Made by a program: the position numbers and the translations under genes. A DNA stretch of 58,753 nucleotides, filler included, from Sphacelaria rigidula (lineage: Eukaryota): assembly GCA_964200075.2 (NCBI GenBank). It is 7 parts of 7 records of this genome, joined end to end, with 100 filler letters (N's around TTAATTAATTAA, not from the genome) between each part and the next. Parts side by side here need not be neighbours in the genome. Positions count along the whole stretch, not along the records: positions 1 to 8,308 come from CAXNAA020011575.1; 6 more parts are not named here. The stretch is one strand, 5' to 3'. This document shows, in pieces, positions 800 through 58,753 of the stretch. Position 1 is the first letter of the stretch. Every line of letters begins with the position of its first letter. A model generated the notes under the pieces. The model was not told the origin of the DNA. It ran no database searches and saw only the letters and a program-made list of their open reading frames with translations.

Positions 800-2282
800 A
801 GATACTACACAGTGAAAGCGGTCAATATGTGGATGATATATTTCAGTTTCGAAATGCACCTCCACCACGCATTATATGTACTCTGTAGTAGTTTGCCACT
901 GAGGCCCTTGATACCCCTCATTATGATATCGACGTGTCACTGAAAGCAAACGCCATTGATAAAGGCAAAGAGGAGCACACACACATGATGAATATTTGGC
1001 CAAGTGAAATCGAATGATCACAGCCACTCTCAATCGGCGCTCTACTGTCGGTTTCACAGAAACGTTGTTTATAGCAGTCCAGCCGACACCCGAAGAACTT
1101 TCCTCGTGGTCAGAAGTTTCTATGGACAGGACCGAGTCTTGTCAACGAAGGATTATCACGGCTGTTGGGTTCGCATGTCTCGTCGACGTTGAATAACCAC
1201 GACTGTTGAGTTCGCATGACCGTACAGTTTGATTTCTTTGACCACGACAGCAGGTCACGTGCTGAACAGGCATGGATATCTACTCTTTTCAACTTGTTAT
1301 CGACAGAGGTATATCCAACTTTGCTCCCGGTGTCCTGGTTTATTCACTGGCTCTGTGTACTATTTTCTAAAGTGAAAGTGATCGCGATTCATAGGCATGA
1401 CGTAAATATGACTGTTGAACGTATCACGTACGAAACAGGAAGGGATCCCACATCATTCGACTTGTGTTTGTTGCTGACTAAGGTCAGGGCAATGATAAAT
1501 GATTTTTAATTGCTTTGCTTTCATGTGCTCGTCACATTCGCTGCAACACCTCTGTCATTGCACTCTCAAATCGATGAGGATGCAAAGAAAACCACTCTAG
1601 AGGACCTTGCCGAGTTTGAGATACATCTATTGATAATTTGAACATGCTTTCGTGGACTGTTGAGTAGATATGACGGCGGTAGATGCTTCTTCCCCAACTA
1701 TTGTGATGCGTTGAACACCTGGTCAACACCCAGATGAACGTCTGTTGTAAAGATGATGAGTTGACTGTATTATATTAATAGCACGGTAGGTGCAGCCCTG
1801 TGTATTCAGGAAAATTTCTACCTCACCTGTTGATAGTCTGTCCATAATACAGGAGAGTGCATTCGTATTACTGATCAATGTACAAAAGGTGAAGCTCTGC
1901 GTGCAGAACTTCTTTAAACTGTTGCTACCAAGGTACACAGACAGTTCAACAAAGTCTCCTGTGATACGCAGTGTTTTCGTGAGCTTGAGAGTAGATACTA
2001 CGCAGTGACAGCGTAAGGCGGTTAATTAATGAATGATTTATTGCAAACCCTAAATGCACTACCACGGCGCACTCTATGCCATCTGTAGTAGCTTGCCACT
2101 GAGGCCCTTCATATCCCTCAGTATGATATCGACTTGTCCCTGAAAGCAAACGCTAGTGATAAAGGGAAAGAAGAGCACACACGGAATGAATACTTGGCCA
2201 AGTGAAAGCGACTGATCAAAGCTACTCTCAACTGGCGCTCTACTCTCGATATATAGCAGTCTAGCCGGCACCCGAGGAACTT
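800..2282 (+). pseudogene. Decayed coding sequence of unknown family containing two copies of a domain (~800-1100 and ~1960-2282)
   Basis: The diverged direct repeats translate to FATEALDTPHYDIDVSLKANAIDKGKEEHTHDEYLAK*NRMITATLNRRST and LATEALHIPQYDIDLSLKANASDKGKEEHTRNEYLAK*KRLIKATLNWRST. Many stops. A third copy lies on the minus strand at ~53345-53665. Confidence 0.55.
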
Positions 2283-2604
2283 AATCGATGATAATGCAAA
2301 GATTATCAGACGGTGAAGAAATACCCCGCCATGAACGGGCTTTTGTTAATCCGATTCCTTTTTTAAGTTTTGCACGATCTTGAGGAGGTGCTTGTGGTTC
2401 GGGATCGACACCCCGCGAAATAGAGCCAGTGTGGGCGACTTTCGATGGCCAGAACACGCGCCACCGGTATCACATGACCCCTAGGCCTGACAGGTGATGT
2501 ACCGCTGCACCTTCTTTGCGCACTGCAAATCAAAGCGCGGTATAAGATGCCTTGCCGCCAGAGAAAACTCGGCGATATTGGTGAAAATTGCCAAGTGATA
2601 CATG

Positions 2605-3660
2605 TACGTATATATATTAAAAGCAAACCACGCAGAAGGTATTGTTTTTCCAAAAGAGATTGCGCACGCTCATAACATAGCTTTTGTGCAGCCAACACGC
2701 TTGCGAAGGAATGTATTGAGCGTCTTCTGTATGTGGTGATACACCTCCCAATGGCGGATACTAGTTCCAATACACTTTCCAATCTTCATGTTGAAAATAA
2801 AAAGATGCTGCTACACCAATATGCATTGTGACCGTCGGTTCCCTCGTATATTGTCCGCCCAATATATATTGGCGCTTCGGGTGTGGAATATATTCAATAT
2901 ATATATATATATATATATTGACCTCATATGACAGCCAATATATTACTCGACAGTGTATATTAGCGCTTTATCGCACCAACATTGCTCGGCCGATATATGT
3001 TGAGGTGACGCATCTAATGGTTTATGATTCAGTCGAAGCTTCCTCTGTCTCGTAAGTCTGGGCACTTATGTGCGTTTAATCGTTTGGGTACTTCAACGTC
3101 GACGATCATGCTACGGTTGGATTCGTTAGAGAGATGCAGCGCAGAGGAAGCTGACGAGAAAAAACGAAAAAAAAAAACTCATGCTCATAACTAAAAGTAT
3201 GTCAAAGTATCTCCCATTATGACCCTTTTTACCATCACGAACATGTGGGAATATAATTGTGGTTTCGCGATTTTCACATTTTCTGGCCCATTTTTTGCGA
3301 TTTTTCCTGTGTTCCCGAGGCTCGTACTTTCCTTGGGAAACGAGCGAAAAATTGTCGTCTTTGGACCGACCTTTTTCTCGGCCACGCGGCTGTATGGGTC
3401 ATGTACAGACGTTGTTGGAAGAATGTTAGTCTACCAAAACAAACGCCAGCGAATGCAATATTAATGTCGAAAATCAAATATCACACCGTTAAGGACTCGT
3501 ACAACCGTAAGTGCCCAGACTTTGAAGACGGCGGAAGTATATATAGCTTATCGCGATCCTTGACGTATTGATCTATCTCGAATGCCATTATATGGCTCGC
3601 CCAATATACATTGATCACCCGACGCGTCGACATGTTCAGGGGGCAATATATATGTACATG
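2605..3660 (-). repeat. Inverted copy of the 42-43 bp repeat-spacer array, interrupted by a MITE
   Basis: 2605-3014 is the reverse complement of ~5002-5495, and 3538-3660 is the reverse complement of ~4886-4985, with the same spacers in the same order. Confidence 0.85.
3039..3537. mobile_element. Tc1/mariner-type (Stowaway-like) MITE, ~500 bp
   Basis: 32-bp TIRs CTTCCTCTGTCTCGTAAGTCTGGGCACTTATG / CGTAAGTGCCCAGACTTTGAAGACGGCGGAAG. TA follows the right end; no TA at the left end. It interrupts the array relative to the other copy. Confidence 0.75.
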
Positions 3661-4611
3661 TATCACTTTACATTTCTCACCATCTTCGCTGAGCTTTCTC
3701 TGACGGCAATGCATTTTTTTTCCGCGTTTTGTTCTGCAGCGCACTAAAAAGGCTCAGCGGTACATTAACGTTCAGGTTTGGGTGTCATCCGATACCGGTG
3801 GCGTGTTTTGTTCACCGAAAGTCGCTCAAACTGGCCCTTGTTCGCGGGGTGTTGATCCCGAACTGCAAAAGCCTGTTGAAGATCATGGAAAACTTCGAAC
3901 AGGATTACTTTTGGCGGGGTATTTTTGTGCCGTGTTTCTTCTCTATGGCGCGTTCTCGTTCATTTAGGGGCACGAATACACCGATTATGACGTCAACGTC
4001 TCGAGAACATGAGAGCAAAACAGTTGGAAACAATGCGACATTGCCTTGGTCTTATTCAGCAGTAGACCAAGGTCGTGCAATGGACCGCCGGCAGGTTGAA
4101 CAAGGCACAGCAGCACGGTAGCACAGGGATGTTTTGCCGCAAAAATAATCACCCCGTCGTAATACAAGGCCCGGTGATGTGGAAGTCACAGTGATGTACA
4201 TGGAAAGAAGAATGTTTCACGCATTCCAATATCCCGGGAAGTGTCTCCCTCTGTCATGTCTTTGTTGTACGACAGCTACGTCGCACTCTGGCACTGCGGG
4301 AACACCACACATGTCCTACGCCGGCGGTTCCGCCGTCGGTCTCCGTCCGAATGCCCATATTTCTGAACGACATCAGATGACACATGCGATGCTTTGTACA
4401 GCCACGATCACGGCTGTACATTGAGATACAACAGCCTCTCTCAACCATACGTTTTCGACTTGCGTCACCCTCGGGAGACCCATGCGCTGAAGGGGAACCT
4501 TGTCATAACATCTTGTTTGGTCCACGGTGTGGAAATATGCTTGGTTTGTGTTCTCTTGCTGAAATTCCCCCTCTGTCTCAACCCACCCATCAGCGAAATA
4601 CGTGGGACATA

Positions 4612-4659
4612 CCTTTATATTTACCGCGAAATCCGCCTTTATATTTACCGCGAAATCCG
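4612..4659 (+). repeat. 24-bp perfect tandem duplication
   Basis: CCTTTATATTTACCGCGAAATCCG occurs twice in tandem. Confidence 0.9.
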
Positions 4660-4885
4660 CTTTGCCGTTTGTGGCATGACGTTGATGTTTGCTTATGCCT
4701 ACAGGTTTTTCTCAAGGCCCATATTGAAGCGTTGTTATATTTTTCACCAAGGTACATCTTTCCCGTGCGGGTCCCTCTGAGCAACTCAACTAATCATGCT
4801 GTGATAATAACTCCTTGTGAGCTCATTTGGTGTTCGGCTCATCATCTCTTCTTGAACACGACCAAACCCTGGACAATACAACGTG

Positions 4886-6410
4886 AAATATATATTGCTC
4901 GCTCAATATGTCGATGCGTAGGGTGGTCAATATGCATTGTACCATCAATATATAAAGTCTCGCGACATGCAACATATATTGACCGAGTAATATATTACGA
5001 CATGCGCCACCTCAATATATATTGGCCGAGTAATATGTTGGTGCGGCACGGCGCCAATATATATTTGTCGAGTGATATATTGGCTGCCACACGAGGTCAA
5101 TATTTATATATATATATATATACATAATATTCAATATACTCAACACCCGAAGCGCTAATATATATTGCCGCCCCGATATGTCGTGCGTCAATGCGTCCAG
5201 TATATATTGGGCGGACAAGACACGAGGGAACCGACGGTCACAATACATGTTGGTGTAGCCATATATACATTGTTTTTCAACACGTAGGTTGGAACGTGTA
5301 TCAGAACTAGTACGGTGGGCAGTTCTATGATCACTGGCGCAAGTGGAAGATGTATAACTGCATGCAGAAAACGCTCGATACATTCCCCCGCGAGCGTGTT
5401 CAGTATATATTGGCTGCACAATAGCCATGCGATGAGCGTGCGCAATATATATTGGAAAAACAGTGCTTTTACATGGTTTGCGCTCAATGTATATATCATG
5501 GCAACAGTATGTTAAGCATCGCTTCGACTCGATATATCTTGACACTTCAATACATACACGGCCGGCATGCATGATATGTATTGCATGATTTGTTCCCGGA
5601 GCAAAGGCACGTCCCACATCTATTTCCATACATTATTTCATGATCATGACACGAGAAATATATATGTTGTTGCTGCAATATCTCCGAAGACATCTCAACT
5701 CAGTATATATTCGAACGACAGTATTTGCGCTCGCCAATGCAAAGTATTGGTATCATATTGGAACATCTTGTGTTGACCAAGGTATAAGCAACACAGCCCC
5801 GGTAACAACAGGGGCACCGAAAGACGCATATCGATCCGCGCTCTCTGTTGTCGAGATGTTTACCAAAGATATTACATGCTATGAAGGGGACGGGCGGCCC
5901 CGTAACAGTGGCGAGATGGGTATAAAAAAACACAGATACGGGGTCGCCTCTTCTGTCACCGTATTTCCTTACCAATGTGTATGTATATATATATATATCA
6001 AACGAATTCGACAACTCTTCATAGCGATGCACGCGAACTTCTGCCGCCCCCTTTGGAGCTTTCCCCAGTCTGCACGGGGTCCGGCATCCACCGCGTCTGG
6101 ATCTTTCTTGAAGGGTATGCCATACTTAAACTATTCTATGTATATATTGATCGGCCAATACATTGACACCCACGCAGACTGAATATATATTGACCAGTCA
6201 ATATGTTCTCTCCAATGCGACCCCAGTATATATTGGTCGTGCAATAAGCCTTCGCCCACACTTCCCCAATATATATTGATGGAGCAATATGTGTTCAACC
6301 CCACGATACCATGATATATCGGACGGGCAATATGTATGCAGTCCCATGACATCAATACATATTGGGAACGCAATACGTGTGCGATCCAAGGGCACCAATA
6401 CAGCTATATT
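4886..6410 (+). repeat. Periodic repeat-spacer array: CAATATATATTG-N6-CAATAT plus unique ~18-19 nt spacer, period 42-43 bp, ~24 recognisable units
   Basis: Palindrome starts at 4886, 4928, 4970, 5013, 5055, 5098, 5156, 5198, 5241, 5401, 5443, 5485, 5530, 5572, 5657, 5701, 6138, 6181, 6224, 6267, 6310, 6353 and 6396. The sequences between them are mutually dissimilar. Confidence 0.9.
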
Positions 6411-7844
6411 ACGCCATAGCCTTGGGCGTCGCTCCTACTGTACCCAAAATAGGAGAGGCACCTATTGCTTGCGTTTCCATACTGCATTCTCTTCTGAGTT
6501 TATCGTCAAAATCATCACGCTACGCTAGAGTGTTGTCGTTTCGAGCGCCCAAGACACGGCTAGGTTGTTCGTGCTTCGCGCACCCACACGCTAGGACTGT
6601 GACCCCGGAGCAGTCCCGATGCCGATACACCAAGCCCTGTGCTTCTCATCTGCACCACGTGGAAAATGGACGAACGGGCCACAGCTACTCCAGCCTTCGT
6701 AGATGCACAGCTCCGCACATTCATTGTATGGCCCGTCGTTATCCCCTGTCTCGCGACATGCCAAGGACTTGTGCCGTTGTACGCCGTTTGACGAGAGCAT
6801 ATTCTAGAATACTTGTTGCTGTGTTGAGGTGTTGTATCAGAATATTTCCGAGCCCAACACTACGCGAGCTACTTTGACTTCATTCCCCCCAGCCAAAGAG
6901 ATACAGGTATCAGTGCTTACATTCTGCGGACAAGGGGTCAGCAATAGAAGTAACTGCAACTTTGTTGAGGGGTGCATTTACGCAGACCTCCGTCCTTCAA
7001 AAGGTATCTCGCGTTTCGATACAGGTGGCGCCAGAACCGATTGATCTGAGCACCGCTTGCTGTTATCATACTGCCTGGCGAGGGCCGTATGGCGGGTGCA
7101 GCATCATGCACAGTTCCCCGGATAATGTCCACACCCGCCACATTCAGTGTGGATCACCCTTTGCCCACCCCCACAGATATGGTGATATCTCCCAACAGCG
7201 CGCGACAGTATGCTGAACACGCGATAAGTCGGCGTATGCTGCCCAACTCTACATGATCACCTGGCTGATGCGGGCTTCCGGCGACGAAACGTTAGTGCTA
7301 GGAAATATGATATCACTGAAATGAAGTGACAGTCCTGCCTGTGTGTTCCCCCAATGCGAGGTGTACAAAGCAGTGGTAGTTGGCGCGACATGAGAAACTC
7401 TGATGGGTGTAAACAAGATACGAGCGAACTCGGCACTCAAGATTCATGCGCATGTTCAGAGTTCAACGCCTCTTCCTTTGTTCCAGTCGTCCCGACGCGC
7501 TGCAACATGGCTTTAGTCGCTTCAGTCGTCCCACCGCGCTGCAATCATGGTATCGGCACTAGGCTTCTGTTCGATGAAATGCCCTCTCTCCTGCAGCAAT
7601 CGTGCTCCAGTGGCAATCCTTGTCACGTGATGACTCCACGGTTGGCTTGTCAGCCCACTCTAGTCCACACGGCTGTTTGCGACCAGAAAACCATGATGAC
7701 CGTTTACCCGCGTTTCACATGGGCACGACCTCCGGTTATCTTTGCTAGGTGATTGGCGCAGGCTGCTGTTGGATTTGGGGCGGTTCGGATCGCAGCAGCA
7801 GCAGTGACACTACCGCGGTCCCAAGCCCGTATCTGGTGTTGCTT

Positions 7845-8308
7845 CGAGGTTGAACAACGACAGCATCATATGCCGGAGCATTTATGAAAGTGGAATTCTG
7901 CGCCTCACACGTGTGGGCGGACATATTAGATGTAGTGAGCAGGTGGTCAGCAGGGCTGCTTCACCAAACCATCGTCCGGTGCAGCTAGTGGGAGGGAGGC
8001 GGAGTTCCGCGCCACACACACTCGAGCAGGTATGGTCGATGTGAAGAGCAAGCAGTGCGGCGAGGAGGGGTGCTCCACACACCCATCGTTCGGCGCAGCC
8101 GTTGGCAGGAAAGCGGAGTTCTGCGCCGCACACGCCCGAGCGCGTATGGTCTATATGAGACGTCAACGGTGCGGCGAGAAGGGCTGCTCCAAATCCGCTT
8201 CGTTCGGTGAAGCCGGTAGCAGCGAGGCGAAGTTCTGCGCCGCACACGCCCGAGCGCGTATGGTCTATATGAGACGTCAACGGTGCGGCGAGAAGGGCTG
8301 CTCCACAC
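7845..8308 (+). CDS. EsV-1-7 cysteine-rich repeat protein, truncated by the contig end; upstream repeats frameshifted, possibly a pseudogene
   Basis: 40-aa tandem units MVDVKSKQCGEEGCSTHPSFGAAVGRKAEFCAAHARAR and MVYMRRQRCGEKGCSKSASFGEAGSSEAKFCAAHARAR match the EsV-1-7 motif (C-x4-C-x3-PSFG...FC-x2-H...MV). The frame is open from ~7939. An earlier degenerate unit (KVEFCASHVWADILDVVSR) is in another frame. Confidence 0.85.
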
Positions 8309-8408
8309 NNNNNNNNNNNNNNNNNNNNNNNNNNNNNNNNNNNNNNNNNNNNTTAATTAATTAANNNNNNNNNNNNNNNNNNNNNNNNNNNNNNNNNNNN
8401 NNNNNNNN
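8309..8408. other. Artificial contig linker (N44-TTAATTAATTAA-N44); identical linkers at 16717-16816, 25125-25224, 33533-33632, 41940-42039, 50347-50446
   Basis: Six identical 100-nt spacers with stops in all six frames. The segments between them are 8308, 8308, 8308, 8308, 8307, 8307 and 8307 bp, as expected for length-sorted contigs. Confidence 0.97.
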
Positions 8409-8619
8409 TTCGGAATGGGAAACGCCGAGCACAGCGAGCAGCCGGGAATTCCTACGTTTGGGTACATTCTAGCCAATGTCGCCAATATGAGGCGCGTCAT
8501 GCAGCCTAAACCCAAACATTAGGCGCTGTATCGCCATTTGTTTCGTGACACGTTTGGGCTGGTTTTGGGGGGGGGCTATCGTAGAAAGCGTCATCCTTAC
8601 AACTAAAAAGTAGTTGCAT

Positions 8620-9095
8620 GGAACCACTGGTTCAATAACCTGTTCTGTGTGCGAACAACAGCTCGGTTAGGAGCCCATGCAACTACTTATTATGTACAAC
8701 CAACTATACGCATTTAGCAGCCCGTGCGGTAGTTGCGGGGTAGCCGGAAACCTGTGCAACTACTTGCGTACAAATAACCACTCAACCAGAAGCTCTGTAT
8801 CATGCATTATTGTAGCTGTGTCAACAACTACTGGGTCAGGAACAACTGGTTGCGTGCGAACAACTACTCTGCCAGAATCGCGTGCAGTAGGCGCGGGTAA
8901 ACACCTGCTGGGCCAAACATCTGTGCATTTGTTATCTACCAGTCATTGCTCAGTCAGAAACCTCTGCAACTATGTTATGATTAATTGCACGCGACTACTT
9001 GGTCAGAGGCCTGTCAACCAACTGCTTGCAACAATCACTTGATCAGAAACATCCGCACCTAGATAACTTCGTAAACAACTTACGGGTGAGAAAGT
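8620..9095 (+). repeat. Degenerate ~40-bp minisatellite (~11-12 units)
   Basis: Recurrent CAACTACT..GTCAGAAACC.GTGCAACTA-type units, e.g. at ~8825, ~8861, ~8950, ~8992 and ~9032. Confidence 0.6.
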
Positions 9096-9532
9096 ATATA
9101 ACCATTTTTCGAGAAAATCACTGCCTCTAAAAACTAACTGTAGTTACAACGAACTAAAGGTCTGAAACACTTGAGCTGTAGGAATCAAGGGTGATGTATG
9201 TTATGCAGTAGTCAGTATCGTGTGAGCTGTCGCCGCTGTCGCTGCTAATGCCGCAGCTGCTACGTGCGTTCATGTGAACGGGTACACTGAGTGAACATGC
9301 ACATGTGCGGGTAGATTTATGCTGACTTACGGGTACTGGTAGTCGAGTGTGTGTGACTGCCAGTCCATGCTCCGGGCGACTGCGTCACCGCCGCTAGCCC
9401 TGACTCTACATCTGATCCCTCTTTCCGATGACCTACTCTGTCAAGGCACTCTCCAAATGATGCAAAAGATGAAACTATCTGCCCTTCCCCACGGGCCACG
9501 GAATACACTAGTGTTAAAATCGGTTGGGCAAT

Positions 9533-11468
9533 ATGGCAGACCAAGGTGGTAGGCCTGCTCCAGTAGTCGGTGGGCAGGGTGTTAGTGGCCAATTGGGGAT
9601 GGTGACTAGCCAGCTGAGTTCCATGACTGAGCCACTGCGTGACTTACAGTCAGACAAAACTGCATTACGGGGTGAAGTAAATGACATTAGGGTAGTGAGA
9701 TAGTCCACAGCCGTTGAAACCAATGGCGTCCTCGATAGGAATGGTCCACAGAGGGAATCCAGAAGAAATATCAGTCCAGTAGAGGGACGAAATGCTGGAG
9801 TTCGATGGGACCGCCAGTACATCGGGACTCAAGCCGGACCGGGGGAAAGGAGCTCGCGACGCGGGGAACAACGGGGCCAGATACGACGGAGCTAGGGGCT
9901 TTGTCCCCGAGCGTGAGTCAGTCTACGTGAACGATGCAAGTGGGAATGTGTCAGGAGTTCCCGTTTTTCGACAGAGCGTCCCCAGACTTTCAGGGCAAAA
10001 CTCAGAGTTCGCACGGTTTAAACATAATAAGCTGATCAACTTCGCAAGCAGCGAAGGATCAGGGAAACACTCAGAGTTCGCACGGTTTAAACTTGAGCTG
10101 ATCAACTTCGCAAGGAGCGAAGGAATTGACTGGGTGTTTACCATGACCGGCGACAGTTCGCACGATGTGGACGTTGGCGACAATGAACTATCGCTGGGAT
10201 ATCTGGAGACTACATACGGGAAGGACATAGTGGCAGCCCAAGTGAGGGCGAGACGGATGATTGCTGGTAGTCTCGAAGGCAAGAGAGAGCAAGAGATACT
10301 GCTCAGACTTCACTCACCTGGTGCAGTTTGAAGAAAACTAGCAAATGCCTTCCGCCCCAAAACAAATGGGGCAAGAACCGCGTTGTTGGAAAAGTTTGAT
10401 GGAGTCAAGATTAGAGTCATCCTACGATAGGGGGGGGGGGGGGTATTTTGGGCCACTTCTTGCACGAAATTCCAAGTAAAATCATCCTTGAAAGAGGCAG
10501 CGGTTGCTCGAATGAGTTTGTTATCGATATATAACGCACGTTCATACCGATTAAAAGCGTTTTGAAACAAATACAAGCGCACAGCGAGTGTGGCAGGTCG
10601 TCTGGCACACTTTTGAGCCTCTTTTTTCGTGCAATCACATCCAGAAGCAATGGCTAGAGGATCGAGAGGGGCCGCTAACACGGGAGATTATGATTGCCTC
10701 GGTCCGAAAGCGCTTCGAGTCGGCCACTTTTAAAGGAGGAGCTTGCCCGGGGAAAGAAGTCGTCCCCGGGCGATCAGGCTCTCCTCGCCAAGGGTGGGAC
10801 CGGAAAACCGAGCGGTGCACACCGCAAAGGAAAACCGGGCAGACCCCAGGGCTCTGCTCAGAGAAATTGCGGGAGTCAGAATTCGAGTAACTCCGGGTCG
10901 ACATCGTCGGACGGAAAAGCGGCGACTGTGAAGGTGATCGGCTGCCACATTTGCGAAGAGGACACGACGCACCGTGCCAGGAACTGCCCGAAGAGATACT
11001 GCGGGAGGTGTTGTCAACAGGGGCACATGTTGTGGGAATCCTCGAGATCGACAGCGAAAAAAGAAGATGCCGCGATGGCGATAGGTGTGGCCGACGACAG
11101 CGATGACGCCTTCGTTATCTCGGGCGCGGACGGGGAGGCTTTCGCCTCTTTCGACACAACCATCTACGACGAAACAGGCGAGTACGCATTGTGTGTTGGG
11201 CAGGGGGGTGATGAACAGCAGGGTAAGAGCGAACCGTTGGTGTTTGACACGGAGGCTACAAATAATTTCTCCCCTGATTCCTGTGGGATGACGGAGTACA
11301 GAGAGTGTCAGGGTAGGGTACTACGGTGCGCGGGTGGTGGTACTTACTCGATCGTAGGCAGAGGAAATTTGTCTCTTGCTTTCAGATCTGACGGACAGGA
11401 TGTGGTGGTCAGATTAATGGACGATGATCATGTACCAAATGTCCGTCATCACCTCTTGTCACTCACAA
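9533..11468 (+). mobile_element. Ty1/copia LTR retrotransposon, decayed gag (two Zn knuckles) plus protease; continues at 15890-15950
   Basis: Gag-like VPRLSG..EFARFK...; CHICEEDTTHRARNC and CGRCCQQGH knuckles; protease LVFDTEATNNF...GRGNL...HVPNVRHHLLSLT. The frame resumes after the nested element as TRIQKSGHTYTGFRVG. Contains stops, frameshifts and a MITE at 10414. Confidence 0.85.
10414..10631 (+). mobile_element. Sola2-like MITE left end inserted in copia gag
   Basis: Terminus GAGTCATCCTACGATAGGGGG...TATTTTGGG; body homologous to 20716-20930; same terminus at 50313. Confidence 0.65.
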
Positions 11469-16716: not shown

Positions 16717-16899
16717 NNNNNNNNNNNNNNNNNNNNNNNNNNNNNNNNNNNNNNNNNNNNTTAATTAATTAANNNNNNNNNNNNNNNNNNNNNNNNNNNN
16801 NNNNNNNNNNNNNNNNTGTCCTTCTGTCCCTTTCGCTTTTTCCCTATCCATGCGTACTCTTCAACTTTGCATCCTATTTCTACCCCCGTAGAAAGTGAG

Positions 16900-25065: not shown

Positions 25066-25548
25066 CCCGCGCGCCGCACCCAGCGGCGCGGCGGAAACCG
25101 CGCGCACCAGCGGGAAGCGGACTGNNNNNNNNNNNNNNNNNNNNNNNNNNNNNNNNNNNNNNNNNNNNTTAATTAATTAANNNNNNNNNNNNNNNNNNNN
25201 NNNNNNNNNNNNNNNNNNNNNNNNCAGGGTGGCTTCTCGCGTGCGGGCTTTCAATTTCGAGAGTACCCCCCCCCCCCCCCCCCCCGGGACGGGGGGAAGA
25301 CATGTAAAAGGTTTTTGTGTTTGTATGGAATGAGCGCCGGAATGTTGGAGGTGTCTCTATTAGGAGTAAGAATGGCGCTCCGTCTCGAGAGGAATACGTG
25401 GTCAATGGTCATACGACTAAGGCAAGCATCAAATAAGTACGCCCCCCCCCCTCCCCTCGTCACCCCTCACCCCTCACCCCTCACCCCTCACCCCCACGTC
25501 TCCCTCGTTCCCCGAACACATTCGTCTTGTCTTGGATAAATGGAACAG

Positions 25549-31400: not shown

Positions 31401-33014
31401 TTTGTTAAAGTACTAATTCGGATCATGAGCTGGCTAATTCGCCCCCCCCCCCCCCCCCCCCTCTTTTTTTCTTTTTTTTCCTGTTTCAGCACTCACCCGT
31501 CCGCATCTCGAGTTTAGTGTGAANNNNNNNNNNCCCTGCACGAACGCCCCGTTGTTTTTTTATTTTTTTTTTTTTTTTAAACTCCAACTGCCCATACGCA
31601 GCGGGCGAATTCCCCCCCCCCCCCCCCCCCTTTTTTTTTCCACGTTTGCCTCGTACGGCGCCTGACGCCGAGCACACGGAGTTGTGCGAAGAGAGCTTTT
31701 TGTCTCCTCCAACCCCACCGTCACGTATTCTGTGTTCTTGGACAACGGGTCTGAGGGGCGTTCTCGATGAGTATTTTTTGAGCTTGCTCATGAGCTGTTG
31801 GACGTTTGGAAGATTTGACACACTGGACATTATTTGGTCAATAGTTTGAATAGACAACGAAATATACTGCGTCAAGTATGAGCCTATCGCAACTATTGCC
31901 CATATACTGCCCAATGTGTGTGCAATATGCCTCTACGCAGTACATTTCTTGCCTAATGCAAGTCATGACTATATTCTGTCGAAGGTAGGGGAAGATTTCC
32001 TGTCTTTTCCCCGGTTGTTTGTTGCGTTTCGGAGAAATATAATGCGGACTATCATTTGCCACAGACCGCGGCCTGGGTTTGTGCACTCGTTGCTACAGGC
32101 GTCGCGGGAATCACATATCATGATATTTTCTTGTTACGTTACGTGTATGGATATTGTGAACATGGTGTGTTGATTCTACCGCCCCCCCTCCCCCCCCTCT
32201 CACTATGTTTCTGTTCTCTGCCGTTCTTGTCCTTGCTTTATTCATCGTTTCATTAGAGAGGTATGAGAGGGGGAAAAGACTGGAGATTTATTTTGTAGCA
32301 TCAGAGGAGTGCAGTCCGAGTGTTCTGTTGCTGCGGTGGTTGGATATGAAAGACGTTTTTTATTTTTGCTTTCGATTTTTCGTTTTCGTTTCTGATTTTT
32401 TGTCGTTTTGACCTTGTGGTGCATAATGGATCACATCGCGGAAGTAATTTTAATATTAACCGAAACATACAACAATAACCGCACGAGTGCGGAAGATGCC
32501 GCAGCTTTAGCCGTGTGATAAACGGATACGGGATGTGTCCTGTCGTGTCCCGTCGGTCGCCCCACAAACAAATTTGTCCACTCGAAAAAAATATATAGAA
32601 GAGAAAAAGCAGTCTCCGGCCATGATGTGTGGCCTCGCTCATCCTGTAAAAATATCTATCCGCAACCTGTAAAATCCTGTGTGAAGAGTGAACTCTGACA
32701 AATGAGAAGAGTTTTTTACGCGAATAAGCAGAGGTGGAATTGTTCGGTATAAAGCCGGATGATACGGCGAACAAATTTTTGGCCTACAGATTATTCGCTT
32801 GTGGGAGGTCGACAAGGTCTCCACAAGTGTTCGATCTCTCTCTCTCTCACGCACACCCCAACTGGCCTGTGGCAGACTCTTGTGGTCGGGCGCCTGGATG
32901 GTCAGATGTTTCGTGTTGGGTGAAACCAAGGATGAATAACACCCCCCAAGTTGATATTGGACCATCAGATGTTATTTTTGCCGCAGCGCACCGTCCTCGC
33001 TGGCATGTGTGTGA

Positions 33015-33380: not shown

Positions 33381-34260
33381 AAACACCACTTGAGAAAGTA
33401 TGTGAAAGCACGGCAGGATTACTACTCCAACTTGCTGGGGATATCCCGAATGAATTTGCAAACAACAGCCGATCATCTATGTTGAGGATGGTGCTTTTCA
33501 TTGAGGATGAGAACCCGGAGGATTAAAATCTTNNNNNNNNNNNNNNNNNNNNNNNNNNNNNNNNNNNNNNNNNNNNTTAATTAATTAANNNNNNNNNNNN
33601 NNNNNNNNNNNNNNNNNNNNNNNNNNNNNNNNAGAGAACAGTAGTAGCGGTGACGGGAACATTGCCCTATTTTTTCAACATGTTTTCAGCGCACAGAGGC
33701 ACGTCCTGTCCAAAAGGAGAGGTAGAGAGAAATCGATTTTCGCGTTGGCGACAGGCAAGAAGAGACCACGGGATTTCTCCGCACGTTGATGCTCTGGCAT
33801 ATGAAAAAATTTGCACATGCTGGTAAGATCAAGGATGCCAGTCTCTCGAGAGTTTGGTAATCGCCGAGCGGGGACACACAAAGGGCACGGGCGAGGAGCT
33901 TCCTCTCTGTCGTTGCTNNNNNNNNNNCTCTCTGGTGATATCGTCATCGACACGCGTGTACACCGCATTTCGTTGGGTGCACCTAGCCAGAGTTGCCTAA
34001 CCCTTGGACCGCGGTGCCCGTAGTCCATCTGGACCACGCGTGTACGTTTTTCAAGTGAATATTGATGCCGATTCAGCAGGTGACCTACTCTCGCGGTCTA
34101 ACCGGTAACTCCTGCTGCGGAGGTTTGGGAAGGAAGATACTTTCGCTCTGTCTTACTCTTCCGTATCTTCCCTGCAATAATAGAGAAATGGGACTTCAAC
34201 CTCATCTTTTGTTTCAACCCCAAGAATTAGAATCGGCTGTTAAGTGAAGAAATGGAACCG

Positions 34261-41939: not shown

Positions 41940-42119
41940 NNNNNNNNNNNNNNNNNNNNNNNNNNNNNNNNNNNNNNNNNNNNTTAATTAATTAANNNNN
42001 NNNNNNNNNNNNNNNNNNNNNNNNNNNNNNNNNNNNNNNGATCTCACCCACATACACCGAAAGGTGTAGACTGGTGCCCAGAATAAATGGGACGACAACG
42101 CAACACAACACAACACACT

Positions 42120-48035: not shown

Positions 48036-51000
48036 GCATTTCACATGCGATAAAATTCGTGCATAATGATTTTTACGAGGATTCTATATTCTGGCCGTTA
48101 GCGTTCCTGGGGGAAAATTACCGGCCGTTAGTGCGCTAATGCTACTGCTTCATGCTTCACTCGACGTCGCTTTCCCTATCTTGTTTGTCATTAGTGCAGC
48201 CCAGTCCATAGCTGCAAGTGCTACCAAAGAGCATTCGAGGTGCAATTGTCCACGGCGCTGTAGCTGCAAGCGTCGTTTTGTCTACACGTACATGTGAAAG
48301 ATCGTCAAAGGATTACTGGAGCGCCGGAGGTGGAATACTCACCGTTCAAGAGTTCCATCCCTCTTCTCGTACCTACCTGCACACACAGAAGTCTAACAGC
48401 CATCTATCAAGAAGAAGGCGGTTGAGCGGATTGTTTTGGGGTCTGTATCAGAATGTCAGAATGAGTACTCCCCGACCCCGTTGACTCTTGCAGGGATCGA
48501 ACTCCTGCGTCCAGACGGCGCGACGTGCTACAGGACAACGTGGTTATGGCCACTAGATACCCAGTATTTGAAGTCCACTGGGCAGCATTCTATGAAGTGA
48601 CACCAGTGATTAAATATGTTAAGTGCACACTAACTAATGATGCATTTGATCCGTACGAGTCACACTATTCAGTTCGGTGTACACTGAAACCAGCATATTT
48701 TATATGTGGATAATCTGCTCGGTCTGACGTGAATGTTGGGTGCTGCGTGATCCTCCTCACTTCCGGTTCTCGCATGCAGGAGCCTTGAACACGGGTTGGG
48801 ATCAGGAGGGTGGTGCTAAGAATCGACTCAAGGCAGCGGTAGACTCGTTCAAGTTGGAAGGGCTTGTCGTCGATGGAGTACGACTGGGCTAAGAAGCCTA
48901 GGGACCGGGCGATATAGGATCCAAGCCATATGGCAAGCATCCGTAACATCCAAGGAGTATTATTTTTCGATTTCAGCGCCGACATTTCTAACGCCAAAGT
49001 TGATGCGCAAAGGGTGCTTTCACAGTAATGGCATACCTAATCTCCATTGCTTCCATCTGTACGGCACCGAGGAAGACATATCGTACAATCCAACCCCTCC
49101 ACGGTCCTCCCCGCACCCGCCTTACGGTCCTCGTGACAGGATGACGGATGACGGAAATAAAGTAGGTACGACAAGAGGCAAAAGGCTCACAGTCCGAATC
49201 ACCCCCTCGATACCTATGAGGCACCCGTGGCTATCTCTGGAAGTGGCGATACCAGAAAATGAAGCGTCGTCTCTTAGGCTGTCATCCATTGCATGATAAT
49301 TAGTACAGGAGGCAGCTCGCCCTTCATGCGACTGACTCGCCGAACACATCACGGCGCGTCGCGCTTGGTGATTGGCTCCGCGCGTGGTCCGGCAAAAACC
49401 CGGCGTGCCCCGTCCCGACTTTGTATGGATGCGAGGCCAATGGTCATCACTGCAGCATGCAAGATCATCAACACACCCCACGCCTCCCCTGCTCCCCCCC
49501 AACAAAGTTGAAAGTGAGAAAATAATTTGTAATTGTTTTTTGTGGGGTGGCTTGCCGCAAAAACTCTTCAAAAATATTTTAACTACTCCAAGTGCGCTGG
49601 GGTACACACCTGTTCCACCCACGCTATTGATTTAAACGAATCGGCTCGTGAGTTTATTGTATGTGCTATACCGTATTCCAATTTCACGAAGTGAAACTAG
49701 TTTCTGCTGCGGGTAAAAATTAGACTAACCGGTTTTCTGCGACTGCATTTTTGCGACAGAATTTCGGCGACTCCGTTCTTGCGACATTTTTTTCCCTAGA
49801 TTTTCCACTCTAAAACCCCTATTGATTTCGTTTTTTTGCGGATAACTTTGTCAAACAGATACCAAACGCATCTTGCTGCAAGGGGCACCTGGACATATAG
49901 CTGTCGCTGCTGCCCACAAAGTATCACCCTCCAAATCGATGTCTTGAGTGAGAACGCCCAGCTTTTGATGCCCATGTACGAGGAAGGATGATCTACATCT
50001 AGTTTCATGCTCCAAAAGGTATCCAGGGGGCAACATCCCCGTACAGACAGAAGCAAGGCTAGCGGATCCTACGTCCTGACAGTCGAGCAGCCAGCAAAGT
50101 GGTTCTGGTAGTGTCCTTGTAGCGATATCGACTTACAGTGCACTCCTGATTTACAGTGCACTGGAGCAGAGTTTGCAGGTGAATATTTCATACGTCGGAC
50201 GAGCACGAGTGTGAGTGATTGCACTCGCGCTCGTCGGGCTGCTCGTTGGTCGTAAAAATTAATAGGTCGAGCACTCGAGTCATTGCTCGTTGTGGAAAAA
50301 AATAATAGGGTGGAGTCATCCTACGGTAGGGGGGGGGTATTTTGGGNNNNNNNNNNNNNNNNNNNNNNNNNNNNNNNNNNNNNNNNNNNNTTAATTAATT
50401 AANNNNNNNNNNNNNNNNNNNNNNNNNNNNNNNNNNNNNNNNNNNNATTACACAGACCGTGGATCCGCTTGGACTAACGACCGCTACCAGACCCGCCGCA
50501 TCTCTCAACCTGCGTGCAGATCTGGGTTCCAACCTGTACAAAACTTCTTGTCGATAGGACTCGGGACTGGTCATTTTGGGGCCAATCCCCTGTCAAAAGG
50601 GGATTGTGAAAAATGGGAATCCCCTTCGTTAACCCTTTTGGAACTCACAACGGAAAATTGATCATTTGCAATTGACGGTTTTTGAGCAAGATATGGTTGA
50701 TGGTTCACAGCTTAGACGCAACAATATTCGCCCAATGCGTATTTTTCAGACCCGTGCGGGTGACAAGTGGAACAAGAGAAGGTTTCTTATTTTCTCATTG
50801 CGGCGAGGTGCAGAACCCGTCGGCGTTTTTTTTCTACACTCGTGAGCTCCTTCCCCGACCACAGTGAGCGGCAATGAAGCATGCTTCCCGTCTGACCTGC
50901 ACGCCCTTCCCGGTGCAGTTTATACTCTTTGCAGCGTCATAGCAATAAGGGCAACGCCGATGGCACATTCGCCATATTTATGAACTGGCGGTGTAATACA

Positions 51001-53344: not shown

Positions 53345-53665
53345 CAACAACGTGTTCGTGAGATTGAGAGTAGAGCGCCGATTGAGAGTAAAGCGCTGAC
53401 TGAGAGTGGCTTCGATCATTCGCTTTAACGTAGCCAATATTTCATTCCGAGTGTGTTTTTCTTTGCCTCTATCACTGGCGTGTGCTTACAGCTACACGTC
53501 GATATCCTACTCAGGGATATCAAGGGCCTCAGCGGCAAGCTCGTACAGAAAGCATATCGGGCATCGTTGAGGGGCACTTCGGAACTGAAACGATAAATTC
53601 ACTAATTGACCGCTTTTCACTCTCAATCGTATCTTCCATTCTCCATCTCGCGAAAACATTGTTGT
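53345..53665 (-). pseudogene. Third copy of the unknown decayed domain seen at 800-2282
   Basis: QCFREMENGRY...GQLVNLSFQFRSAPQRCPICFLYELAAEALDIPE*DIDV*L*AHASDRGKEKHTRNEILATLKRMIEATL. Confidence 0.6.
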
Positions 53666-54771: not shown

Positions 54772-55674
54772 AGGCCGTTTCTTCCGGTTGGTTATTTTCC
54801 CTCGTTATTTGCAAATAACGAGGGGAAATAACAAGTTGGTTACTTACGGTTGGTTATTTCACAAGATTCTCGGGAAAAAAATGCGAGACGGGGGACATTT
54901 TACGAGATGGGCCATCCTGGCTTGTACTTTTTTTTTAAATACGAGACGAGATCGACTTGTATTTTCCTCTCATTTTTTTCATTCGCGGCACGGCGAGACT
55001 AGCAACGCCCGCCAGCCCTGAATATGTTTGTGCCCTTCGACATCTAGGGGGCTCTCCTGACAGCAATGTCGAACATCCCCAGCGCCGTTTATACACTAGA
55101 CCAAACTTTGCTTCGCCATCCCGGCACACGCGAGATGTCGTCAGGGGCTGATGATCTATTGGCATCGATCGTGCTCTCGAAAACCTGCAGCACAGACAGT
55201 ACGGTACCCAGCGCAGAGATTACAGGGTACTACTCTGTGCTGTCTGATGCAGTGAGTTGTAGGTGTCAGTTTGCATACAGCAGTAGTACGCACGGCTGTA
55301 GTAAAAATGATGCATACAACGTGAGATATGTGGACAACGTGCAACACAGACAACACCAGGCAGTACTGTACTGTCTGCACTGCCGCAGTGGACAGTAGGA
55401 TCCACATGCCATGCTGCACCCAACGACGACTGCCGAAAATGATTTGGACGACGTGCAGTAGAGAAGGCGCCCCCACTTAAGAACTTGGCAGTTAAGAAAT
55501 TGAAGCTCAAAAAAATTGAAATCTAAGAACTTGGCCATAAGAACAAGTGCTCAGTTCCGACGTGATATTAAGGACAAGAACCCGCCTTTGTGGTGTTAAG
55601 ATGAGCATAGATATAAGAACAGAGCCCCAAATGCGGCGGGTGCATGAATAAGAACGAGGGATCCGACGCCACAG

Positions 55675-55745
55675 GGGGCGTACTCATTTGTTGCTTGCCT
55701 TAGTCGTTTGACCATTGACCACGCATCCCTTTCGAGACGGAGCAT
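55675..55745 (-). mobile_element. 71-bp 5'-truncated LINE insertion in the pogo element with 11-bp TSD
   Basis: CGACGCCACAG at 55664-74 and 55746-56 flanks the LINE 3' end. Confidence 0.9.
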
Positions 55746-55877
55746 CGACGCCACAGAGGGGGGTGGTTCCAGATTTTTGTCTGACGAGCGGGGGGATCAG
55801 TTTCCCATAGCGTACTGTACCCCTTTCGTGTGCGGGCCAGTTCTTTCGCCTGCTGCATGCATGCAGGGCGGGGGACC

Positions 55878-57604
55878 ATGCCTTTATCCCTTGAGACACT
55901 GCAAGAGCTCGAGTAACTGTCAAAGCTGAAAGGGAGAGGTGTCATTCTTGATCGACAGTTCTAAACCCTCAAAGAACATATCAAGGCCGGCAACTGCCTC
56001 ACGAAGGGACAGTGGGAGGCCGTCGAGTTGACGTGGGGTTTGAAAAGCTACGGCGTCTTTCTTCTCGGAAGAAGGGTGGGAAGCCGAGATTGATGGGCAA
56101 ATCCGGGAGATCATCAGCAGCGCTCGCCCTTCGCTGCTGTCACAGCAAGCTGCTGGCGCGCTAGGCGCACCCTGGACGTCACGGAGGCGGCCACCTGCTG
56201 CAGCGGATCGCAGGACTGTGGATCGAGGGAGGGAAAGCAAGAAGAGAGCCGCCGCAAACACCGTCGGCGGCAACATCATGAACGCCTTCGCTCTTGGCAG
56301 CGGACAGCCGATGAGTTCACCCTTGGAAATAATTATGTACAAGCTGTTCTTGGGTCGCCGCAAGAGGAAGCTGAAGGTGTCGACCCTCTGGCTCACCGTC
56401 ACGTTCCGGAAGCTGCTGCAGGAGAAGTGCCCTACCGATAACCGGGCGGCGGAGTTTCGCCCGTCATTCAGGTGGATGGAAAAGTGGGCAAAGAGACACA
56501 GCGTGGTACAGCGGCGCCGGACCAACTTGAAGACCAAGTCCGTCGAGGAACGCCTGCCGCAAATCCAGCGGTTCCACCGGAGGTTTAGCGAGCTGCTACA
56601 AGAGGCGGTGCGCCGCACGGGGAGCATCTTCCCTGAGGCTGCACCGCTGTCTTCGGGTGAGACCAGGCTAGAGAAGTACGGGCAGTTCCAGGTGGATGAG
56701 CGTTTGGGCGTGGATGAGGTGCCTTTGCTGTTTGTGAACGGGTTGACATCGACGTGGGAAAAGGAAGGGGCGACGCGTGTTGCCATCAGCCAGCCCTTCG
56801 CTGGACTGGAGAAGAGGCAGTGCACCATGAAAGTCATCTTTGGTCCCGGAAAGAAGCTCATGCGGATTGCGCTCATTTTCCGAGGCACCGGGAGGCGGAT
56901 CTCGCGGGTGGAGAAGGCCGCGTACCACAAGAACGTGGACGTCTTTTTCCAGAAGAAAGCGTGGGCCGACCAGAAGTTCTGCATGGAGTGGGCCAAGAAG
57001 TCCTACCGCCCGAGCTTGATGCGCGGGAGGAGCCAGCTGCCCCAGGAGAGGGCGCTCCTTCTCATGGACAACTTGCACGCGCAGACGACGCCGGAGTTCA
57101 AGGGATATCTGGCGAAGCACTGCAACACGCTCGCGTGGTATTTCCCGACGAACATCACGGACAAGCTGCAGCCCGTGGAAGCAGGAGCCGGACGCATGCT
57201 GAAGGTGGAGATTGGCAAGCTACAGGACGCGTGGCTTGACCAGTCGGACAACGTTGAAAGGTGGGAAAGCAACTCGTTGACGGCATCTGACCGACGGGTG
57301 CTGATCACGCAATGGGTCGGAAAAGCCATGGAAATTCTCGACAAACGCGAGGAGTACCGGTTTCGCCTTTTCGAAAAGTGTGGCATGGCGATGACTGCCG
57401 ACGGCTCAGGCAACGGCCGCATCAACTTGGAGGGTTTGGAAAAGCCGTACACCTCCATGGGCGAGGACTCGAGCGACGACGAGGGACCCTCACAGACTGG
57501 CAACGAAGGGTCCGGGGGGGGGGGTGACCAGAGGGGGGGGAATGAGGGGGACCAAGGCGGGGAGGGCATGGAGGACGGCGATTCCAACGACGAAGACAAC
57601 GACG
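55878..57604 (+). CDS. pogo transposase exon 1 (CENP-B-type HTH plus DDE_1); the 5' part has two premature stops and a frameshift
   Basis: LEIIMYKLF..RRKRKLKVS...FRPSFRWMEKWAKRHSVVQRRRT (HTH_Tnp_Tc5-like); GVDEVPL, QKKAWAD, LLLMDNLHAQ, FPTNITDKLQPVEAG; acidic tail. Confidence 0.9.
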
Positions 57605-57740
57605 GCAAGTCGGAATTTCATCGAGTCTCCCCCCACAAATTTGTTGTTGTTGTTGCTGTTGCCTTTGAATCCACTGATATTTGTATGGGTGGCAATACGT
57701 TTGATAACGTTATGTGGTTTGCAAATGCCGCTCGTTGCAG

Positions 57741-58195
57741 ACATCCCCAGCAGCCAGATCGACGAGCTGAGCCTTGTGGACGACGACTACAGCATGGACC
57801 CGGAGGATGAGATTCATGGCATGGAGATTCCGGACGGCCTTCGCATTCAAGTGTCTTCACCCGCAGCTCTTGGCAGTTCCATACTCCAGCGTGGAGTCCT
57901 TGTTAGGCTGGGCATGGGTCGGTTTGGTGGGCTCATCACTCGGCAGTCTCAGGAGCGTACTCGCCGTGTTCACGACTACCGTGTGCATTTCGAAGTAGAC
58001 CAGAGTACGCGTAGCATGAAGCTGCCGTGGGAAATGTACAGTGGAGATCCGGATGCGGTGGTAGGCTCTTGGGTTTTGCTTGAGAGGAGCACGGTAGAGC
58101 AGGTGGATGGGGTGAGAGCTGCAGCCACGTTGGGCGTCAGCAGGGCGGGAAGAGTACGCACTCCCAACGTGACCCTTGTGGACCAGGAAGGGTGA
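57741..58195 (+). CDS. Probable exon 2 of the transposase (Tudor/SH3-barrel-like C-terminal domain)
   Basis: Candidate GC-AG intron 57605-57740 (G|GCAAGT ... TTGCAG|AC) joins in frame to DIPSSQIDEL...VLVRLGMGRFGGLIT...DYRVHFEVD...YSGDPDAVVGSWVLL...*. Confidence 0.65.
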
Positions 58196-58753
58196 GGGTT
58201 GCTTGATGCCGTGAGGGGTTTCCATACTTGTACTTTCCAGTGATCGTGATGCTGCGACGCGTTCGAATGTCTGTTGTGCTCACAAGCGTTTTTCAATCGA
58301 CAAGCGGAGGGTGCGTATGTAGTTCACCACGAACGGACTTTGCCATACCCCCCTGGAGCACTGGGTGTTGAAATAAGAACAAGAACCCGCGTTTTCAGGG
58401 ACGAGTGCCTGGCCAAATATGAACTAGGCAAATAAGAACAGGTGCTCGGGTTGAGGCAAAAAATAAGCCTGAGCCTCACGCAAAATAAGCGGTTCTCAAG
58501 TGCGGGCGCCTACTGTACAGTAGGATGGAAATGTTGGTTTGCCAGTACAGAACAGAGTAGTACAACGGCTGTACTAAATAAGATGTGGGCAACGCGCAGT
58601 GCAGACAGAACTAAGCAATACAATTCTGTCTGCTCTGCCTGCCGCATACAACAGTATACATGCGCACATGTCAGGTTGGAGACGGTAATAGACAACGGCT
58701 GCACTAAAATTGATGTGGAGGAGTCCACTAGGCAGTACATTCTTTAGTCTGTA

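Follow-up and report, generated by a model that had tools for sequence, protein, structure and literature searches.

Two phased motif arrays in Sphacelaria rigidula DNA as likely copies of a dispersed, non-coding repeat

A stretch of DNA from Sphacelaria rigidula (assembly GCA_964200075.2; 58,753 nucleotides in seven joined parts, called the window in what follows) carries two arrays of a short, regularly spaced motif, which lie close together in opposite orientation. The two arrays are likely to be decayed copies of a high-copy, non-coding dispersed repeat in a eukaryotic, probably brown-algal, nuclear genome. This repeat is probably an unclassified, non-autonomous transposable element. An earlier note on the same DNA had proposed that the array moves as a block, and this is borne out: the identical order of spacers occurs twice in the window between unrelated flanks, and the right-hand copy has a summed contig depth several hundred times that of single-copy DNA. 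The same note had also likened the arrays to CRISPR loci, a comparison that does not hold.

The phased motif and its two inverted copies

The arrays are built from units of 42-43 nt. When 22 units are stacked, each consists of the 12-nt palindrome CAATATATATTG (motif 1, 1.37 bits per position), a 6-nt linker (0.16 bits per position), the 8-nt word CAATATGT (motif 2, 0.93 bits per position), and a spacer of 16-17 nt (0.15 bits per position). The spacers are mutually unrelated, with a pairwise identity of 26.8% compared with 25.4% (sd 0.7) after shuffling. Across the 6-nt linker, the sequence shows ATATTG, the latter half of motif 1, and CAATAT in motif 2 to be reverse complements of each other.

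This motif is confined to a small part of the window. The palindrome has 14 matches with at most one mismatch, all of them within 2860-6364, against an expectation of 0.11. Likewise, a scan with a 26-nt weight matrix and a threshold of 10 bits gives 22 matches on each strand, every one of them inside 2662-6353, while 20 shuffles of the whole window gave 0-4 per strand. A looser scan places the motif starts of a first array, array I, at 4886, 4928, 4970, 5013, 5055, 5098, 5156, 5198, 5241 and onwards to 5401, 5443, 5485, 5530, 5572, 5656 and 5701, and those of a second, array II, at 6138, 6181, 6224, 6267, 6310 and 6353. The spacings are mostly 42 or 43 nt. Such a distance corresponds to about four turns of B-DNA, which would place all motifs on one side of the helix.

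Two simpler classes of repeat can be set aside. A satellite or minisatellite was rejected because the units have no homology outside the motifs, and a coding repeat because unit lengths mix 42 and 43 nt. Tandem Repeats Finder reported no array in 2600-6400, which is to be expected since only part of each unit is conserved. Open reading frames (ORFs) overlapping the arrays have no Pfam match, and Rfam and tRNA scans of the window found nothing.

The two copies are related by inversion. In a self-BLAST of the first 9 kb against the whole window, 2609-3034 matches 5495-4981 (E 3.8e-64) and 3589-3653 matches 4952-4888 (E 8e-8), both inverted. A global alignment of the reverse complement of 2609-3038 plus 3538-3658 with 4888-5495 is colinear, and 421 of its 520 aligned columns are identical (81%), leaving 19% substitution divergence. 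The inverted relationship that the earlier note had claimed is thus far above chance. Neither the self-BLAST nor the alignments show any flanking DNA in common; the flanks of the two copies are unrelated. The features of the region are collected in Table 1.

Table 1. Features of the two array copies, the larger differences between them, and other elements in the window
Feature	Position	Strand	Remarks
Arm A	2310-2615	+	hairpin repeat flanking the left copy; 77% identity with A' in local alignment
Left copy, distal part	2609-3038	-	homologous to right 5495-4982; without the 42-nt unit; deletions of 18+5 and 11 nt
Element with terminal inverted repeats (TIRs)	3039-3537	.	499 bp, non-coding; 30-nt TIRs at 3039-3068 and 3508-3537, 83% complementary
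Left copy, proximal part	3538-3658	-	units 1-2, homologous to right 4888-4981
Indel, left +25 nt	3574-3598		not unit-phased
Arm A'	3646-3933	-	inverted relative to arm A
Single-copy DNA between the copies	4450-4887	.	depth 12.8-18.8 (X1), 42 (X2), 66-91 (X3); 498-nt contig
Right copy, array I	4888-5745	+	about 20 units of 42-43 nt, some degenerate (from motif positions, spacings and unit anatomy)
Indel, right +9 nt	5118-5126		AT microsatellite
Indel, right +42 nt (extra unit)	5155-5196	+	unit-precise; in right copy only, between two motif copies with TATATATTG in common (from alignments)
Indel, right +18 nt	5312-5329		not unit-phased
Indel, right +5 nt	5333-5337		not unit-phased
Indel, right +11 nt	5399-5409		motif core thereby gone from left copy
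Motif-free core	5746-6137	+	390 bp; no weight-matrix match of 10 bits or more; depth much lower at 5841-6007
Right copy, array II	6138-6395	+	six units at exact 43-nt spacing, oriented as array I
pogo-like DNA transposon	55458-58518		588-aa stop-free frame with DDE_1 (56044-57810); 27-nt TIRs at 55458-55484 and 58492-58518

Copy number, limits and surroundings of the copies

The abundance of the repeat can be judged from the contigs of three DNA-type runs (X1, X2, and X3), aligned over 2000-7000. The figures given here are depths summed over contigs, which are not copy numbers. Between the copies, at 4505-4838, the summed depth has the single-copy values of Table 1, and an exact 498-nt contig covering 4420-4917 is found in all three runs. 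In contrast, bins across 4839-5840 and 6008-6508 range from 3,470 to 10,986 in X1, with proportionally more in X2 and X3; the part of the motif-free core at 5841-6007 lies at 629 in X1. At each of the positions 5175, 5200, 5219, 5403, and 5426 there are 44-92 distinct X1 contigs. The several hundred-fold contrast and the many distinct contigs imply that the spacers occur at many places in the genome. Many copies at different sites, as in a dispersed repeat, are also what the two window copies with their unrelated flanks display. A further run, X8, which is guessed to be RNA, has low contig depth over the arrays and has no bearing on expression either way; among the runs listed as containing this DNA there is no RNA run.

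Some contigs join positions that are apart in the window. Unitig summary lines list the joints 6292 to 4887 and 6303 to 5012; a further joint, 4885 to 5054, skips four units, and at 6108 to 6182 a segment of 73 nt is replaced by 28. These joints hint at other unit orders, or at unit-sized differences, in other copies.

The right copy is about 1.5 kb long (4888 to ~6430) and consists of array I, the motif-free core, and array II, set in single-copy or low-copy DNA. Both copies begin with a common 5' end, ATATATATTG... The repeat is taken to start at about 4888, because the single-copy contig ends at 4917 and homology between left and right begins at 4888. On the 3' side, depth falls from about 10,000 to below 100 across 6342-6675 (below 100 beyond ~6509), and single-copy contigs set in from 6425/6433. 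The right copy probably ends between ~6396 and 6462. With the 3' end bracketed only to this interval, no convincing candidate for a target-site duplication of the right copy was seen.

The single-copy DNA that separates the two array copies contains a perfect 24-nt tandem duplication (4612-4659). A contig of single-copy depth joins 4633 to 6415, skipping 1781 nt; this joint might represent an alternative allele or a form resembling an empty site.

The left copy is partial and matches only 4888-5495 of the right one. According to the alignment it starts and stops within motif TA cores, those of the homologues of the motifs at 4886 and 5485. It is also interrupted, at an alignment break within the homologue of the motif at 4970, by a 499-bp element with TIRs, which is moderately repeated (summed depth 400-1,600). 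The interruption had been noticed earlier but given as 3015-3537. Its limits are 3039 and 3537, because these are where the 30-nt inverted ends lie, while 3015-3038 is a copy of array sequence.

Around the left copy lies a different repeat. Its two arms, A and A', are about 300 bp each, and the left copy sits in the centre of the hairpin that they could form. On either side, the homology of A and A' extends into the TA core of the outermost array motif, with an overlap of about 7 nt. The family of arm A is extremely abundant, with a depth of 45,098 in X1 at 2334-2500, compared with 13-19 for single-copy DNA. Contigs show a loose end at 2587, where other members of the hairpin family continue differently, so the array is not one of its regular components.

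All three foreign junctions of the left copy (its ends against A and A', and the insertion at 3039-3537) thus lie in motif TA cores. This observation, made post hoc, suggests that TA cores are preferred points of breakage or insertion. For genome annotation, such cores look like places to expect breaks and insertions.

A third repeat, about 300 bp long, lies at 800-1100, 1993-2282, and 53384-53661 in three copies that are about 76% identical. It has the top depth of 2000-7000, about 82,000 in X1 at 2000-2166, and is also the deepest in the run guessed to be RNA.

Decay, unit loss and rival explanations

Left and right copies differ by six indels of at least 5 nt, of which a single one is unit-precise. 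It is the one that the earlier note had singled out: 42 nt at 5155-5196 (equivalently 5156-5197) without a counterpart at the left junction 2871/2872. The 25 or so extra nucleotides described for the left copy were also found, their coordinates being 3574-3598. In general the observations of that note were accurate, deviating by a few bases at most, although it left four more indels of at least 5 nt unlisted. The five remaining indels bear on its idea that whole units are lost or gained from repeat to repeat, for which indels away from unit boundaries were named as counter-evidence. None of the five is unit-phased, so the idea stands for one indel in six, together with the few contig joints that suggest other unit orders.

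Contig coverage of the extra unit equals that of the neighbouring units (70 X1 contigs at 5175). The unit is no fresh tandem duplicate, because its spacer is unlike those of the adjacent units. On the simplest reading of the sequences, the left lineage would have undergone an ordinary deletion between two direct repeats that lie 42 nt from each other. The 18-nt gap of the left copy is a private deletion as well, since other copies carry the segment (loose end at 2758).

Both copies are in decay. Between left and right, 152 of 191 motif columns are identical, as are 268 of 327 other columns (Fisher p 0.56). Divergence is the same inside and outside the motifs, which marks the two copies as relics. 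The family majority has cleaner motifs than the window copies. Within the annotated units of the right copy, 15 differences from the family majority are listed, 8 of them in motif 1 or motif 2. In all eight (5175, 5200, 5219, 5403, 5426, 5463, 5531, and 5538) the majority base is that of the motif consensus. Over the whole of 2000-7000, the commonest differences of the family majority from the window are G>A and C>T (in X1, for example, 20 and 9 of 72 places). Changes peculiar to the window thus run mainly from A to G or from T to C when set against that majority, which may simply reflect the decay of AT-rich motifs.

A likely order of events can be proposed. The right copy would be a fairly young insertion into single-copy DNA. 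The left copy would be older and partial, extending from motif to motif at the centre of the hairpin repeat, and the 499-bp element would have hit it later, inside a motif. The unit missing from the left lineage was probably lost through replication slippage, single-strand annealing, or unequal exchange involving the flanking motifs. The repeat would be mobile, rather than spread by some other copying process.

As to what the motif does, it may tentatively be regarded as a phased, bipartite site for a multimeric protein, either a transposase or a host factor. If so, the family would lend itself to the study, in a natural setting, of cooperative end recognition and of rearrangement mediated by motifs. 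A bolder proposal is that of a self-similar modular transposon. Any two copies of a perfectly palindromic motif offer inverted half-sites. A transposase or nuclease cutting at TA cores could therefore release or mobilise blocks of any size, whether one 42-nt unit, the complete array or anything between. If true, this would account for the unit-precise deletion, the partial copy bounded by motif cores, and the shuffled unit orders suggested by contig joints. The four-turn phasing would then put the sites on one face of the helix and permit a cooperative protein filament. The proposal is distinctly unlikely.

Several points weigh against a decayed, mobile repeat with protein-binding motifs. Neither termini, nor a target-site duplication, nor an autonomous partner has been defined, and the call of a transposable element draws only on copy number and differing flanks. 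Scans of metagenome, viral, and prokaryotic collections found no relative beyond the organism's own runs. Protein binding is something that we purely infer, and a TA-rich palindrome could persist for structural or mutational reasons. Cross-mapping on the common motif could inflate the count of differences towards the consensus. Finally, since only one indel in six is unit-precise, exchange between motifs does not account for most of the length change.

The pair could also be explained by its own geometry. One possibility is that both arrays are the arms of a single foldback element, whose transcript would form a long hairpin feeding small-RNA silencing. The inverted arms are about 81% identical and 1.2 kb apart, both copies consist of short tandem units as foldback arms do, and in the available part of PMC12477816 the Ectocarpus family DNA9-N3_Ec32 is described with TIRs of more than 1 kb featuring tandem repeats. 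The minimum-free-energy structure of 2609-5495, if that segment were transcribed, contains 435 left-right pairs, with the longest uninterrupted helices at 25, 23, 22, and 21 bp. The suggestion that the pair folds back into double-stranded RNA is to this extent feasible in silico, as a prediction in which transcription is assumed. However, the loop includes single-copy DNA, the right array runs about 900 bp further in phase past the end of homology, and the common element end (unit 1) points inward, not outward. The left copy is in addition bracketed by a different inverted repeat, A/A'. A foldback element spanning both arrays was rejected on account of the single-copy loop, the array beyond the homology, and the inward-facing common terminus, and the silencing hairpin as a whole is very unlikely. 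Another possibility is a local inverted segmental duplication or templated break repair in place of two independent insertions; in the break-repair version, the left block is filler copied from the array into a broken hairpin centre by way of TA-core microhomology. For a dispersed family, a distance of only 1.2 kb between the copies is indeed short, and the left block is bounded on either side by a TA core that has an overlap of about 7 nt with the arm homology. The known fragility of palindrome centres counts in the same direction. Against this stand the 19% divergence, the absence of flanking DNA common to both copies, and the unequal number of relatives with at least 90% identity, which are very abundant for the right copy (depth ~10,000) and far fewer for the left (1,000-1,450). 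The depth contrast and the divergence fit different subfamilies better than a local copy, and a local origin is accordingly held to be unlikely.

Two further explanations start from the look of the units. As in CRISPR arrays, conserved and unique segments alternate, the spacers are unrelated, there is one unit-precise indel, and recombination between repeats can delete a unit; an adaptive array that gains and loses spacers could superficially look like this. The domain of life is nevertheless a different one, as the context is eukaryotic, not prokaryotic, viral, or plasmid (microsatellites, Copia and pogo fragments, an EsV-1-7 ORF). The conserved core is an imperfect 12+8 nt, compared with near-identical direct repeats of about 23-55 nt. 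Among the window's 114 stop-to-stop ORFs, none has a Cas domain in Pfam, so that cas genes are absent. The spacers are multi-copy: their summed depth exceeds that of single-copy DNA by a factor of hundreds, and they lie on tens of distinct contigs. Five of the six larger indels are out of phase with the units. Every testable feature of the analogy fails, and what is left of it is trivial, namely that deletion is favoured by direct repeats; the chance that the array is an adaptive one is negligible. With this false lead removed, a eukaryotic repeat-spacer pattern can be seen as a transposon-borne array of putative binding sites. Alternatively, each unit might be a mini-gene, in which the TATA-like palindrome acts as a promoter and the spacer templates a short RNA. 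A motif that recurs regularly, has a TATA-like core and is followed by a variable segment would suit this, and ATATTG-N6-CAATAT can form a 6-bp hairpin. However, there is no Rfam match, a 43-nt unit is too short to fit promoter and product comfortably, and the motifs decay neutrally in the window copies, which makes this explanation highly improbable.

Comparable systems and genomic context

Several known elements resemble the dispersed repeat in part. An example is Galileo of Drosophila, a transposon with long repetitive arms whose tandem repeats, in the accessible text of PMC3688188, hold multiple sites for a THAP transposase and are thought to give binding specificity. Another is Tetris, also from Drosophila, which the available part of PMC4079207 presents as a modular, much rearranged, foldback-like element. 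On these partial descriptions, the likeness lies in being non-coding, modular, and highly rearranged, with short tandem units whose number varies among copies. Unlike in these elements, the units here run in one direction through the whole element and do not form two inverted arms. They also have only a 12+8-nt signal in common, whereas the units of Galileo and Tetris are homologous throughout. 

Closer in lineage are the curated families of Ectocarpus. In the part of PMC12477816 available, several have complex termini with tandem repeats, and one shows a TA-rich insertion bias. Like the Sphacelaria repeat, they are brown-algal, non-autonomous, kilobase-sized, and rich in tandem repeats, again by that partial account. 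The termini CGGCA-TGCCG and GGGTG-GATTG are, however, not seen at the inferred ends of the repeat, in a comparison based on the descriptions in the available part of that source.

Subterminal motifs of the CACTA/En-Spm and Ac elements are irregularly spaced, occupy a few hundred base pairs per end, and occur in both orientations. They share with the present arrays a short protein-binding word that is repeated with unrelated sequence in between, although binding is putative here. The spacing differs, being a strict 42-43 bp over about 1.1 kb. The pogo-like transposon of Table 1, with its repeated TAAGAAC word, is an example of such subterminal motifs within the window. A comparison was also made with Helitrons, which have 5'-TC and CTRR-3' ends with a 3' hairpin and insert between A and T. 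The 5' end reads A|ATATAT, not TC, and short hairpins lie at 6372-6456; there is no CTRR at the candidate 3' ends, the 3' end being only bracketed. Non-canonical ends have been reported for Ectocarpus Helitron-N families.

The repeat family is abundant and apparently undescribed, in an under-described lineage whose mobile elements are only now under curation. It is distinguished by its strict four-turn phasing over about 1.1 kb, its perfect palindrome, and its one-directional layout. The motif string was not found in a literature search, and no such array is described in the literature searched on brown-alga transposons and tandem repeats and on eukaryotic CRISPR-like arrays. The motif is also absent from the five supplements of PMC12477816 that were compared; two consensus FASTA files of that paper lay outside the comparison and may bear on novelty. 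In metagenome contigs, two motifs 29-32 nt apart occur in six stretches (five distinct loci), all of them unrelated AT-rich simple satellites with identical units. Viral contigs contain no instance of motif 1-N6-motif 2. Contigs of prokaryotic genomes contain 28 loci with a single match each and no array, which marks them as chance matches.

The window is eukaryotic and rich in transposable elements, with (GT)18 and (AG)20 microsatellites, and two of the ten sequencing runs listed, one of which contains this DNA, bear the label 'algae metagenome'. A Pfam scan of the 114 stop-to-stop ORFs (10 + 104) matched only DDE_1, Pol_BBD, and EsV_1_7_cys. The Pol_BBD match is a Copia fragment, and DDE_1 belongs to the pogo-like transposon of Table 1, in which the first 200 bp or so inwards from the left end contain at least five TAAGAAC words. 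A protein atlas places its transposase no more closely than Eukaryota, with clusters from Oomycota and Chordata. This transposase was considered as a partner of the arrays and rejected, as the TIRs of the transposon and its TAAGAAC words are unrelated to the motif.

Masked stretches of N at 8309-8408, 16717-16816, 25125-25224, 33533-33632, 41940-42039, and 50347-50446, and also at 31524-31533 and 33918-33927, are not biology. Among them, paired 44-nt runs of N recur about every 8.4 kb. One masked run interrupts an ORF at 7939-8361 with three cysteine-rich motifs of the EsV-1-7 type (E 4e-30). According to the available part of PMC12477816, this domain has undergone proliferation in brown algae, in keeping with a brown-algal source. 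The ORF is encoded by a 114-nt tandem repeat (7952-8308, 3.1 copies).

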